In this document: in pieces, positions 17,368 through 58,733 of the stretch
Position numbering within the stretch: position 1 is the stretch's first letter
Layout: every line of letters starts with the position of its first letter
Origin: Escherichia coli
GTDB taxonomy: Bacteria; Pseudomonadota; Gammaproteobacteria; Enterobacterales; Enterobacteriaceae
Assembly (NCBI RefSeq): GCF_013315695.1
Contig: NZ_CP054353.1
Length of the DNA stretch: 64,000 bases
Reading direction: 5' to 3' (one strand)
Made by a program: the position numbers and the translations under genes
The notes under the pieces: model-generated
Databases searched by the model: none
What the model was told of the DNA's origin: nothing
What the model saw: the letters and a program-made list of their open reading frames with translations, nothing else

Positions 17368-17443
17368 GGCCCTTTAGCTCAGTGGTGAGAGCGAGCGACT
17401 CATAATCGCCAGGTCGCTGGTTCAAATCCAGCAAGGGCCACCA
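17368..17443 (+). tRNA. ileZ: Prophage tRNA with CAU anticodon, Ile2 (lysidine) type, ileZ-like
   Basis: GGCCCTTTAGCTCAGTGGTGAGAGCGAGCGACTCATAATCGCCAGGTCGCTGGTTCAAATCCAGCAAGGGCCACCA; close to host ileX in sequence. Confidence 0.85.
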
Positions 17444-17543
17444 TCACAAACCGCCATTAGCTTATCAGGAAGAGCAGACGACGCGATAACAGGGTTGTTG
17501 GTGCGGGGGCGGGTCCCCGATGGCGGTCCATTATCGGTATTCA

Positions 17544-17617
17544 GCGTTGTTAGCTCAGCCGGACAGAGCAATTGCCTTCTAAGCAATCGGTCACTGGTTC
17601 GAATCCAGTACAGCGCG
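17544..17617 (+). tRNA. Prophage tRNA-Arg (UCU), argO/argN-like
   Basis: Acceptor GCGTTGT/ACAGCGC, D-stem GCTC/GAGC, anticodon stem ATTGC/GCAAT with loop CTTCTAA, T-arm ACTGGTTCGAATCCAGT; no encoded CCA. Confidence 0.8.
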
Positions 17618-17730
17618 CTATATTCATTCTTCCAGATTCCTTCCGGCAGAGCCTTATACTGAAATATACCTGGCTCAGGATATTGTTGAAAATATTATAT
17701 GTTTGTCAAAAATAAAAGTTCTGTTAAGTA

Positions 17731-49224: not shown

Positions 49225-49286
49225 CGGTCTCGAAAACCGGAGTAGGGGCAACTCTACCGGGGGTTCAAATCCCCCTCTCTCCGCCA
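49225..49286. other. attR core: displaced original 3' part of serU
   Basis: CGGTCTCGAAAACCGGAGTAGGGGCAACTCTACCGGGGGTTCAAATCCCCCTCTCTCCGCCA, no 5' half of the tRNA upstream. Confidence 0.85.
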
Positions 49287-55295: not shown

Positions 55296-56147
55296 TTAAC
55301 TCGCGTAAGCTGCCAGCATTTCCTGCGCCGCCAGTTTACCCAACGCATTCGCTGCAAAAGGACTGTCGCCGGTGAGAAGTTTACGGTCCTTATGTACTCG
55401 CCCGGTGATGTCGTCATTAATGATGTTCATGCCCATTTTCTTCAACTCTTCGCCGAAGTACCAGGTGAGATGACCCGGCATATAGCCAATATCTGGCGTT
55501 TGTTTGTCTGCGGCGTCTGGGAATGCGCAAATAGAATAACCATTCAGTGGGTTATCGCTGTGGCGAAGTGCCAGAAAAGCCGCCGGACCGTGGCAAAGGG
55601 AGATAACAAAACGGTCATTTTTGATTGCCCACTGTAAAGCGGCAGCCACGTCCTGGCTTTCTGGTAAACCAATAAGTGCGCCATGCCCACCAGGAACAAA
55701 GATTGCTGCATATTCGCTATCAGCGTTGAGGCTGGCGACAACATCCGCGAGTTTCTTCGGATTACGGAATAACGATTTATGCTGTTCAAAGAATGGCATT
55801 ACTTTTTCATCTTTGTGCGGCATAGCCCAGTATTCAAACTTGGTCATCAGACCGGAAATGGTCGCCACTTCGAATTCGAAACCTGCAGCATGGAGATGAT
55901 ACAACGGCAGCAACGTTTCAATCGGATGGTTACCGGTCGAGAACAGTTTTCCGTTATCGGTCGGCAAATAACGTTCGTCCGCGGCGATCACCAGAATTTT
56001 ATGTTTACCGCGATACGGTTTTGGATAGTCCACGCCATCAAGATCAGAGACGGGACTCGTATATTGGCTAAGCGAATATTCTGAAGGGAAGAACGCATTA
56101 TCTTCAGCAATATCGACCTGCGGGTTTTTACTTGTTTGAACAGTCAT
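55296..56147 (-). CDS. hchA: Hsp31 / glyoxalase III HchA
   Basis: 283 aa, MTVQTSKNPQVDIAEDNAFFPSEYSLSQYTSPVSDLDG... Confidence 0.9.
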   Translation of the reverse strand: MTVQTSKNPQVDIAEDNAFFPSEYSLSQYTSPVSDLDGVDYPKPYRGKHKILVIAADERYLPTDNGKLFSTGNHPIETLLPLYHLHAAGFEFEVATISGLMTKFEYWAMPHKDEKVMPFFEQHKSLFRNPKKLADVVASLNADSEYAAIFVPGGHGALIGLPESQDVAAALQWAIKNDRFVISLCHGPAAFLALRHSDNPLNGYSICAFPDAADKQTPDIGYMPGHLTWYFGEELKKMGMNIINDDITGRVHKDRKLLTGDSPFAANALGKLAAQEMLAAYAS

Positions 56148-56742
56148 AGTGTATTCCTTATTGTTGCTTAGTTAGGGTAGTCACTATATTTGCGACTGAG
56201 CTGGTCGCTATTTTTAACCAGGCTGAAAAATTGAGTCAATATATCGAAAGCGGTAGTTGGCGGGCATAAGTATGTAATGATGATGCTGCACTGGTGTTGA
56301 ATATTATTCACGCCAAACTTTCCTTATTGAGTAACGTCGTCGCAAGTGGCCTCAATGATTTTAGACCATTATCAGAGGTTTGGGGGCGATGGGGAGAGAT
56401 TTAGTGCTGTGGAATGTTGTGGTACTGATGAATATTTATATCCCGGATTGGTAGGGAAAAAGCTTTTTTCATGCACTATTTTTGCAAATATTTCTATATG
56501 GGAAGCGGTTTTGTTACAGATTAAATTTATAAAGAAATGCATTTGGGGTGTTGGCTGGAAGAGTTGCTGGTAGAGGATATTGTGCCAGGAGGGGCAGGGT
56601 AAGTGGCTGTATCGAGATGCTTTGGCAATTGCGTGTGCCGCAGATGGAGATGAAATGCCAATAAAAAAAGCCTGAGTTCGATGAGGGACGAACTCAGGCT
56701 GGTGTTATGTTTTACAGTAACACGCCTCGGCGCGTTGGCTGA

Positions 56743-57801
56743 TTAGAACTGGTAGACGATACCAACTGCCAGTTGGTCGTCGGTGTTCAGTCCATGAGCG
56801 AGAACATAATCACTCTTATCAAGCAGGTTGATCTGATAAGCGGTATATACGTTCATATTCTTATTGAAGTAATACCAGGTACCGATTTCAATATAGTTCA
56901 GACGATCAGAATCTTTGTAACCTGCTACGTCCAGTGCTTTAGAATAGGAGTAACCGATGGATGGACGCAGACCAAAGTCGAACTGATATTGCAGAACAGC
57001 TTCGAAGTTTTGTGTTTTGTTCACAACATCACCGTCGTCGGAATTCATGTTGTGAGATTCACCGTACATCACAGCAGCATAGACATTGTTAGCGTCATAT
57101 TTTGTTGACAACGCCCAAACTTCGGCTCTTTCGCCTTTACCATCACCAGACTGCCAATCAGTACGGTCAGAGTTTGCATAAGCACCAGCAAATGAGAAAC
57201 CGTCAATAGTGTAAGTTGCAGATAAACCATGGCCATCGCCATTTGCTTTGTAGTTGCCTGTACCTTCATTTTTACCCTGATATTGCAGAGCAAAATTTAG
57301 ACCTTCAACCATGCCAAAGAAATCTGTGTTACGATAGGTTGCAACACCGTTGGTACGGTTGGTCATGAACAGGTCAGTACCAGCCCATGAGTCACCGCCC
57401 CACTCAACAAACATATCAGTAAATGCTTCTGCATCATACGCGACACCGACATTACGACCGTAGTCGAATGAACCAAAATCTTTGTAACTCAAACCAGCAT
57501 ATGCCAAACGAGTTTGGTCAGGGTTGTGTCTGTTTGATGCTTCCAGGTCTAGTTCAAACTGACCGTAACCAGTCAGTTCAGGGTTGATCTGAGTTTCACC
57601 TTTCACGCCTACACGGGCATAAGAGGTATCTTGAGAATTATCGCCTTTTTCACCATTTTCACGGTCGGTCAGAATGCGCTCACCAACCATCTTGCCGTAT
57701 AGCTCAACTTTATTGCCATTTTTATTATAAATTTCAGCCGCATTTGCTGCGCCAGCAACTAATAACGCCGGGACCAGCATTGCCAGAACTTTTCTTTTCA
57801 T
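56743..57801 (-). CDS. yedS: OmpC/OmpF-family outer membrane porin, apparently intact (YedS-like)
   Basis: Signal peptide MKRKVLAMLVPALLVAGAANA, porin-type repeats, C-terminal ...GIVYQF. Confidence 0.8.
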   Translation of the reverse strand: MKRKVLAMLVPALLVAGAANAAEIYNKNGNKVELYGKMVGERILTDRENGEKGDNSQDTSYARVGVKGETQINPELTGYGQFELDLEASNRHNPDQTRLAYAGLSYKDFGSFDYGRNVGVAYDAEAFTDMFVEWGGDSWAGTDLFMTNRTNGVATYRNTDFFGMVEGLNFALQYQGKNEGTGNYKANGDGHGLSATYTIDGFSFAGAYANSDRTDWQSGDGKGERAEVWALSTKYDANNVYAAVMYGESHNMNSDDGDVVNKTQNFEAVLQYQFDFGLRPSIGYSYSKALDVAGYKDSDRLNYIEIGTWYYFNKNMNVYTAYQINLLDKSDYVLAHGLNTDDQLAVGIVYQF

Positions 57802-58430
57802 TATGTATTCCCTTGTGATTATAATCTTCATGAATATATCAATAAGTGCTGTTATCCAAAAAAAGCACATTTGGATACTATTCTATGAAGTTCATTTTAT
57901 TTTAAAGATTACATGTAACAAATGTATTTAAAAGATTTCAAAATGTTTCTAATCTATTTAATATAATTCATAGTTATGAATTCTGAATATAAATATTCAC
58001 GAATATTATGGATATATATCAATATGTTATGAGTTGATCGAAAAGATAGGGAGTATCAATGATTGTTGCGCTAAACGGCTGGTGTGATCTCGCGCACATT
58101 AATGAAGGCATAAAAAAAAGCCGGCATCATGCCGGCCCAAAAAAATATAAACAAGACGATAAAAGGCTAATAACGGAGGCATGATGACACAGAAAAATAA
58201 AAAGGTATAATTGTAATCAGTACCAATATATTGATTGAATGAATTAATAAAGCCGAAATCAAAGATAAATAACATCGTTCAAATCGATTTTTCCTGTATT
58301 CACCGCCGTTGCGCAAAATTTATCTATTTGTTCAAAAAATGATTGAGTCTTGACTGGCTCATCCAATGTGGAAAAATGTGACTTTTATCACATAATAGTT
58401 CTAAGTCTGAATTTTCCGGGTTATCTCAAA

Positions 58431-58733
58431 ATGGAATACGGTTCGACAAAGATGGAAGAGAGACTCTCTCGCAGCCCTGGCGGCAAATTGGCTTTGTGGG
58501 CTTTCTATACATGGTGTGGCTATTTCGTCTGGGCAATGGCGCGATACATCTGGGTGATGAGCCGGATCCCCGATGCCCCCGTGTCGGGATTTGAAAGTGA
58601 TTTAGGATCTACCGCGGGGAAGTGGTTAGGAGCATTGGTCGGATTTCTGTTTATGGCCCTGGTTGGTGCCTTGTTAGGCGGCATTGCATGGTACACCCGA
58701 CCTCGTCCCGCACGTTGCAGACGCTATGAATAA
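58431..58733 (+). CDS. yedR: Inner membrane protein YedR-like (start uncertain)
   Basis: Two hydrophobic helices; position between yedS and yedJ. Confidence 0.6.
   Translation: MEYGSTKMEERLSRSPGGKLALWAFYTWCGYFVWAMARYIWVMSRIPDAPVSGFESDLGSTAGKWLGALVGFLFMALVGALLGGIAWYTRPRPARCRRYE

Follow-up and report, generated by a model that had tools for sequence, protein, structure and literature searches.

A distinct general porin in the yedS position of Escherichia coli and the diverged allelic lineages of its locus

Introduction

Here we analyse the porin gene at positions 56743..57801 (minus strand) of a stretch of Escherichia coli DNA of 64,000 nucleotides (NCBI RefSeq assembly GCF_013315695.1, contig NZ_CP054353.1), which as a whole is called the window in the following. 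The gene lies in the position where the K-12 strains carry the pseudogene yedS, and it encodes a complete porin of the general-diffusion type, from the enterobacterial OmpF/OmpC/PhoE superfamily. As judged by the sequence comparisons described below, the yedS slot is here taken up by a separate porin lineage and not by a repaired K-12 yedS. Its product is very probably a usable general porin of the outer membrane, and the allele, which is the normal state in roughly a fifth of E. coli strains, is kept under purifying selection. It is noted that the hchA-porin-rseX-drpB position of E. coli holds at least three deeply diverged porin lineages, which we call W (352 amino acids, the one in the window), S (357 or 371 amino acids) and L (387-397 amino acids, the K-12 yedS type), and that all three share the promoter region, the leader and the signal peptide.

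Structure and completeness of the gene

The reading frame on the minus strand runs without interruption from the ATG at 57801 to the TAA at 56743-56745, giving 352 codons and the stop codon. The open reading frame found mechanically opens further upstream, at the ATG at 57870, and would encode 375 amino acids. We take the ATG at 57801 to be the biological start, because the RefSeq annotation of strain A37, which is identical to the window across 56600-58100, begins the coding sequence (WP_000824389.1, named 'porin') at that ATG, because the signal peptide begins there and because the Shine-Dalgarno sequence AAGGGAA (57808..57814, minus strand, by reading of the sequence) lies six bases ahead of it. 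Codons 1-21 (57739..57801, minus strand) encode the predicted Sec signal peptide MKRKVLAMLVPALLVAGAANA, with an Ala-X-Ala site at which cleavage would take place after ANA, so that the mature protein would start with AEIYNK; in alignments this peptide matches the signal peptides of OmpC and OmpF, and it does not vary among the E. coli allele classes of the locus. At the other end, the protein finishes with VGIVYQF, where F352 is invariant in all 24 of the 24 porins aligned, and about 43 bases past the stop codon there begins a strong intrinsic terminator, located by the terminator scan (56662..56700, minus strand; a stem of 12 bp with 7 G-C pairs, a loop of 8 nt and TTTTTTT).

The whole protein belongs to the general bacterial porin family, with the Pfam profile PF00267 (Porin_1) being matched over positions 1-337 of its 337 at 368.9 bits (cut-off 23.7, E = 4e-110). 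Moreover, residues 1-352 align in one piece to the solved structures of OmpK35 and OmpF, and therefore no frameshift or stop codon is hidden in the gene. An earlier note on this DNA, made from the letters alone, had described a complete OmpC/OmpF-family porin of 352 amino acids with a signal peptide and a C-terminal Phe, and had named an internal frameshift as what would refute it; the description is borne out in each of these respects, and neither the profile match nor the alignments to the solved structures reveal any frameshift. It is also noted that the protein scores below the cut-offs of the NCBIfam models for the named porins, with 410.7 against 583 for OmpF (NF007446), 407.9 against 599 for PhoE (NF007544) and 387.6 against 484 for OmpC (NF007841).

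Relation to K-12 yedS and the allele lineages

The K-12 gene is indeed disrupted, as the earlier note supposed. MG1655 annotates yedS as pseudogene b4496 and RP437 annotates it as 'frameshifted; internal stop', and translation of the 1193 nt of K-12 yedS gives one in-frame stop codon (TAG at codon 162) and one frameshift (near codon 215). The reading of the window gene as an 'intact yedS', meaning the K-12 gene without its lesions, has by contrast to be given up. In the tblastn comparison with K-12 yedS the first 227 residues are only 57% identical and the remaining ones 48%, with many gaps, although the signal peptide of 21 residues is identical in the two. Because the mature protein has only this 48-57% identity to the K-12 frames and 59% to an intact long allele, and because it falls into a different clade, the gene in the window cannot be taken for K-12 yedS minus its lesions.

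The sliding identity comparison of the whole locus in six strains shows where the difference lies. The flanks are 85-100% identical in every locus comparison, the leader at 57806-57925 is 97-100% identical among the allele classes, being more conserved than the intergenic DNA that surrounds it, and the signal-peptide codons are 100% identical among the classes (bin 57746-57806). From about 57740 to about 56756, that is, over the codons of the mature protein, the identity drops abruptly to 20-85%, and at the stop codon it is back to 88-95%. With the K-12-type product as the reference, the nucleotide identity of the mature-coding part is 20-78%; among the allele classes this part is 25-40% diverged. 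The divergent block, in which the protein sequences of W, S and L are 30-40% different, is bounded by the signal-peptide codons on one side and the stop codon on the other.

Intact genes of four lengths are found at the locus, with 352 amino acids as in the window (for example in strain A37), 357 (strain Ec-U14-2), 371 (the type strain ATCC 11775) and 387 (strain ECCWS199, where the annotation pipeline PGAP names it 'porin OmpC'), and the copies in K-12 and O157:H7 belong to the long class and are disrupted. The window protein is 67-69% identical to the classes of 357 and 371 amino acids, 59% to the long class and 55-57% to OmpF, OmpC, PhoE and OmpN. In the neighbour-joining tree the classes of 352, 357 and 371 amino acids cluster with porins of Klebsiella oxytoca, Enterobacter hormaechei, Citrobacter, E. 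fergusonii and Leclercia, the last being included by the tree and not by its locus. This short clade stands apart from OmpF, OmpC, PhoE and OmpN, with the window allele as its longest branch, and the long class clusters with OmpN and OmpC, having 70% identity to OmpN. The length of the window branch is seen also in the pairwise values, since W is 66-71% identical to the short porins from outside E. coli and those are 72-90% identical to one another. The relatives share more than the sequence: the order yedA-vsr-dcm-yedJ-(drpB)-porin is kept in K. oxytoca, E. hormaechei and Citrobacter, and in E. fergusonii it is present without dcm. The closest relative outside E. coli (79% in amino acids) also lies in a vsr-yedJ-porin locus, on an enterobacterial metagenome contig of another genus.

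It is mentioned in passing that K-12 yedS has been called 'yedS (ompS1)' (PMC2731931). When the long allele was used to search for homologues, no named Salmonella OmpS1 appeared among the best 120 matches, and the equation of yedS with ompS1 thus comes down to the label in that paper.

Occurrence and predicted function of the W porin

The W allele is the ordinary state of the locus in about one in five strains of E. coli, among which are the B2 strains Nissle 1917, ATCC 25922 and sequence type 131 (ST131). In the megablast search of 5426 complete E. coli genomes with the mature-coding core (56790-57730), a match was found in 1167, and in 1165 of them (about 21% of the genomes) the identity was at least 95%, with 511 at 99% or more and 654 at 95-99%; in 1139 carriers the match is a single uninterrupted alignment over at least 80% of the query. 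Nissle 1917, Seattle 1946 (ATCC 25922), FDAARGOS_536 and A37 have copies identical to the gene in the window, and copies with 99.9% identity are present in ST131. At least 1000 public contigs carry the exact protein WP_000824389.1, under the names 'porin' or 'predicted porin', and its 90% cluster has 2356 members.

The sequence of the protein points to a working pore. All seven of the OmpF constriction residues are conserved, namely the basic K16, R42, R82 and R132 and the acidic D113, E117 and D121 of loop L3. The AlphaFold2 model, which was built from the alignment of 24 sequences and is of moderate confidence (mean predicted local distance difference test score, pLDDT, 75; predicted template modelling score, pTM, 0.74), has 16 predicted strands and a predicted L3 of 38 residues with short helices, and its best solved match in Foldseek is OmpK35 (5o77), with TM-scores of 0.87 and 0.91 and 60% identity. 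Moreover, comparison of the window allele with its 97% identical sub-variant in strain c1-17 by the Nei-Gojobori method finds 20 synonymous changes and 9 non-synonymous ones, that is, a synonymous rate (dS) of 0.091 and a non-synonymous rate (dN) of 0.011; from the ratio dN/dS of 0.12 it follows that the protein has been under purifying selection.

By analogy with its family, the porin would work as follows. The precursor would be exported via the Sec pathway and cleaved after Ala21, and the mature protein would be inserted into the outer membrane by the β-barrel assembly machinery (BAM), which would recognise it through the C-terminal ...YQF signal. There it would form a barrel of 16 strands, expected to be trimeric, with L3 folding inward and narrowing the water-filled channel, through which small hydrophilic solutes, including β-lactams, may pass. 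The earlier note had supposed that a third general porin may be functional in this strain. The supposition of function is supported by the conserved pore residues, the dN/dS ratio, the 16-strand model and the conserved leader, and what has to be amended is the word 'third', which undercounts, as PhoE and OmpN are encoded too.

Several observations weigh against a usable porin of the ordinary kind, and they are put together here. In the latching loop L2, the equivalent of OmpF E71 is His (residue 92, mature 71), and L2 is two residues shorter; the equivalent of OmpF Y102 is Val (residue 118, mature 97). Both replacements are found in the W lineage only, the other 23 porins being invariant or nearly so at these positions, and because of them and of the shorter L2 the stability of the trimer may differ. 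(Loops L6 and L7 are short as well.) The codon adaptation index, calculated with a manually entered weight table, is 0.47, equal to that of the quiescent OmpN (0.47), compared with 0.66 for OmpF and 0.82 for OmpC. The sigma-70 scan of the control region gives 5 sites against 5.4 expected from shuffled sequences; since sigma-70-like sites are thus no commoner than in shuffled sequence, we claim no promoter, although candidate hexamers can be pointed to (TTGTTA starting at 57921 and TAAAAT ending at 57894, with a spacer of 16 nt). Finally, the W gene is dispensable, as it has been lost in ATCC 8739, where the copy has an internal stop codon and a deletion of 6 nt, and in another strain, where an IS3-family element and a group II intron truncate its 3' end.

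Taken to their end, these observations would make the gene a silent relic, with the reading frame still intact but without useful expression and drifting to the pseudogene state that has been reached in K-12, O157:H7 and ATCC 8739. The repeated pseudogenes at the locus, in the L lineage (K-12 and O157) as well as in the W lineage, speak for this, as do the AT-rich control region, the modest codon adaptation index and the promoter scan. However, a dN/dS of 0.12 over a dS of 0.09 shows constraint on the protein, all but 26 of the 1165 carriers (1139) are uninterrupted over the mature-coding core, the leader is more conserved than the intergenic DNA around it, and a YedS-like porin has been reported by proteomics in a wild strain of Shiga toxin-producing E. 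coli (STEC; PMC9731836). We therefore regard the silent relic as improbable, and a usable, constrained general porin remains the explanation that we favour.

Control region and expression

Between the ATG and rseX there are 311 bases (57802..58112, minus strand), which the composition and the identity profile mark as an AT-rich leader and regulatory region, with a G+C content of 26.7% over 57750-58049. Very AT-rich DNA is of the kind that is silenced by H-NS. The region also contains a CRP-like palindrome, GGTGTGATCTCGCGCACATTA (58079..58099, with no strand assigned), which matches the K-12 site ggTGTGAtcaggcGCACAtta, the difference between the two being confined to the spacer of 6 nt; the likeness is a correspondence of sequence only. 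A Footprint-seq preprint of 2026 (PMC12871828) reports the K-12 site, assigned to yedS, among those to which CRP binds in vitro. Based on the AT-richness of the control region and on the CRP-like site, we infer that the window porin is probably expressed only under certain conditions, and at a low level in laboratory culture.

The published data on expression concern other strains. The mRNA of K-12 yedS is detectable and drops 2.5-fold on induction of sigma-E, as ompF, ompC, phoE and ompN also fall (PMC2731931). In the STEC O26:H11 strain 21765, proteomics detected a 'putative porin with 50% homology to K-12 YedS' (PMC9731836; UniProt K4Y655), and about 50% to K-12 YedS is the identity expected of a short-lineage allele. 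It is noted, too, that the intergenic region between yedS and yedR has served as a marker of host source (PMC11267920).

Direct pairing of the small RNA MicF with the leader was considered and is not supported. With RNAduplex, MicF nucleotides 1-40 and the leader from -120 to +45 give -12.6 kcal/mol against a mean of -13.6 kcal/mol for shuffled sequences, 188 of the 300 shuffles being as good or better, while the ompF control gives -27.4 kcal/mol (z = -5) with none of 300 shuffles as good; this negative result holds for the simple duplex model only.

Divergence of the locus

The divergence between the lineages is distributed unevenly over the protein. In the extracellular loops the identity between lineages is only 31-40%, and all insertions and deletions fall in L1, L2 and L4-L8. 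Among the members of the short clade the barrel strands are 73-76% identical and L3 is 68-82% identical, and when compared with the long class and with OmpF, OmpC, PhoE and OmpN the strands have 56-61% identity.

Such a pattern raises the possibility that the main role of the porin is that of a variable surface, serving as a receptor for phage, colicin or contact-dependent inhibition (CDI) systems or having an antigenic or adhesive role, and that this role, rather than solute uptake, drives the diversity of the lineages. The low identity of the loops relative to the strands and L3, the confinement of the insertions and deletions to loops other than L3, the coexistence of ancient lineages within one species and the mosaics described below are all in favour of it. 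Against it, the pore constriction is fully conserved, as would be expected if diffusion matters, and we consider it quite unlikely that the surface is the main role. Note, however, that a role at the surface is compatible with the general-porin explanation and does not exclude it.

The lineages are not confined to E. coli. The nearest relatives of the long E. coli allele are porins of Enterobacter named 'OmpC/OmpN', which are 80-82% identical and lie at the same locus, and when a short-allele strain of E. hormaechei is compared with a long-allele strain, the flanks are 90-100% identical (most bins at 95% or more) and the mature-coding part only 37-74%. Alleles of the same type in Escherichia and Enterobacter are 80-81% identical in protein, compared with 61-65% for different types within a species. 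The proportion of synonymous differences (pS) of same-type alleles across the genera is 0.68-0.78, with saturation at values of 0.72-0.78, and that of the flanking yedJ and dcm across the genera is 0.66-0.72, compared with 0.11-0.13 for yedJ within species. Because the synonymous divergence is saturated and equal to that of the flanking genes, the lineages are old, and the likeness of the cross-genus values to those of the flanks suggests that the lineages predate the split of Escherichia and Enterobacter. Recent transfer between the genera, as one candidate explanation, was rejected for the pairs examined, since the pS of the same-type alleles matches that of yedJ and dcm.

Another candidate, that the alleles are the survivors of a tandem pair of paralogues, was considered with the locus of E. 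fergusonii, which has tandem porins, the short-type one of 361 amino acids and then one of 369 amino acids, with a trkH-like gene then preceding hchA. The porin of 369 amino acids, whose signal peptide we take to be of the NmpC/OmpD type, has 54-62% of its residues in common with W, S and L; since this second porin is not of the long lineage, the idea of the tandem pair is not supported.

Recombination within the gene has also left its traces. Intragenic mosaics are found of W with S, of W with a K. oxytoca-like half and of W with a half that we likewise assume to be NmpC/OmpD-like, with the junctions in the conserved segment after L3; for example, the mosaic porin P0015 of E. coli assemblies has an NmpC/OmpD-like N-terminal half and a window-type C-terminal half. 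Some of the mosaics come from metagenome assemblies and could be assembly chimeras. The existence of such chimeric porins in public data, both the W/S mosaics and those with the NmpC/OmpD-like half, is also what would favour the view that the intactness of the window gene is only apparent and results from a sequencing error or a misassembled chimera of paralogues, but that view is effectively refuted, because the same sequence of 1059 nt is present in FDAARGOS_536, Seattle 1946, Nissle 1917 and A37, which were finished independently, and the alignment to the solved structures is unbroken.

For the diversity of the locus, our preferred reading, as the data suggest, is long-term balancing selection together with cassette-like recombination; old imports from diverged donors may also explain it. 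In the more specific form of the preferred reading, which we propose only tentatively and which may well turn out to be incorrect, the locus would hold a very old balanced polymorphism extending across genera, in which W, S and L are swapped as a cassette under the shared control region, presumably under the pressure of phage, colicins or immunity on the surface loops. In the literature search we found no description of a polymorphism of the locus with several lineages.

Neighbouring genes and other features of the window

The gene order around the porin is hprS, hchA, porin, rseX, drpB (the same as yedR), yedJ and dcm. By annotation, the downstream neighbour hchA (55296..56147, minus strand) forms one conserved flank, and by annotation mapped to the window, the divergent upstream neighbour drpB (yedR; 58452..58733, plus strand) forms the other. 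The porin thus lies between hchA and yedR, where the earlier note had placed it, and to this we add that the small RNA gene rseX lies in the same interval on the yedR side. The rseX gene (58113..58203, minus strand) adjoins the regulatory region of the porin, has its own terminator in the terminator scan and is matched by Rfam RF01401 at 90.8 bits (gathering score 50, E = 4.9e-12). This small RNA is reported in the literature as a regulator of ompA and ompC, and its gene is reported to be repressed by H-NS/StpA (PMC8313858). As separate observations, two nearby genes are pseudogenes in other strains, yedJ having an internal stop codon in Ec-U14-2 and drpB being frameshifted in O157:H7 TB21-1.

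At some distance from the porin, the window contains an element of about 47.5 kb (1747-49286), which is apparently integrated in tRNA-Ser(cga) (1747-1836). It has an open reading frame resembling a tyrosine integrase (1889-2914, minus strand), a direct repeat of 62 bp of the 3' part of the tRNA-Ser gene, at 96.8% identity, at 49225-49286, and genes for tRNA-Met and tRNA-Arg(tct) within 17368-17618. The element is probably a prophage or a genomic island at serU.

Significance and comparison with known porins

It should be stated that an intact porin at the yedS locus is already known, being annotated, common in wild E. coli and linked to carbapenem susceptibility in 2013; the allelic architecture is the only part that may be new. 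If it is confirmed, the locus would offer a clean case, in bacteria, of an outer-membrane protein under long-term balancing selection. As the name 'yedS' covers at least three proteins, calls of presence or absence, or of intact or disrupted, that are made against the K-12 sequence are misleading. Moreover, Nissle 1917, ATCC 25922, which is a reference strain for antibiotic testing, and ST131 carry the W gene as a spare general porin, which could restore or alter the entry of β-lactams upon the loss of OmpF and OmpC.

The system to be compared first is K-12 yedS itself (b4496, formerly b1964-b1966). It shares with the window gene the position between hchA and rseX-drpB, the identical signal peptide and the superfamily, and its upstream region corresponding to 57806-57925 is 97-100% identical to that of the window, with the flanks elsewhere at 87-100%; the difference resides in the mature protein. 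This is seen more clearly with the intact K-12-type long allele of ECCWS199 (387 amino acids), which is 59% identical to the window protein, groups with OmpN and OmpC and has loops L4, L5 and L7 that are longer by 10-14 residues.

There is likeness, too, to the short-type porins of other Enterobacteriaceae, namely those of K. oxytoca (351 amino acids), E. hormaechei (358), Citrobacter (358) and E. fergusonii (361), which are at the same locus, begin with a signal peptide that is unchanged or almost so and belong to the same clade as the window protein, the latter having L6 and L7 shorter than in most of these relatives. Among solved structures the best relatives are OmpK35 and Omp35/OmpE35 (5o77, 9hn1, 5o78, 6ene), with OmpK35 giving 445 bits and 60% identity, and OmpF is also among them. 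The window protein has the L3 motif VEWGGD in common with OmpK35 and Omp35, in contrast to PEFGGD in OmpF, OmpC and PhoE of E. coli. We take OmpK35 to be the OmpF-position porin of Klebsiella, at a different locus. With OmpF, OmpC, PhoE and OmpN the window protein shares the fold, the type of signal peptide, the constriction residues and the C-terminal signal. At the position of PhoE Lys125, which is presumably the residue for anion selectivity, it has Asn.

Finally, a functional YedS was reportedly described in carbapenem-resistant clinical E. coli by Warner et al. in 2013 (Antimicrob Agents Chemother 57:1935), where it is reported to be expressed, to affect carbapenem susceptibility and to be under the control of MarA and MicF. 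It is likewise an intact porin of the yedS locus in a strain other than K-12, and we liken it to the window porin by locus and not by allele lineage; the MicF control reported for it is not supported for the leader in the window by the simple duplex prediction.

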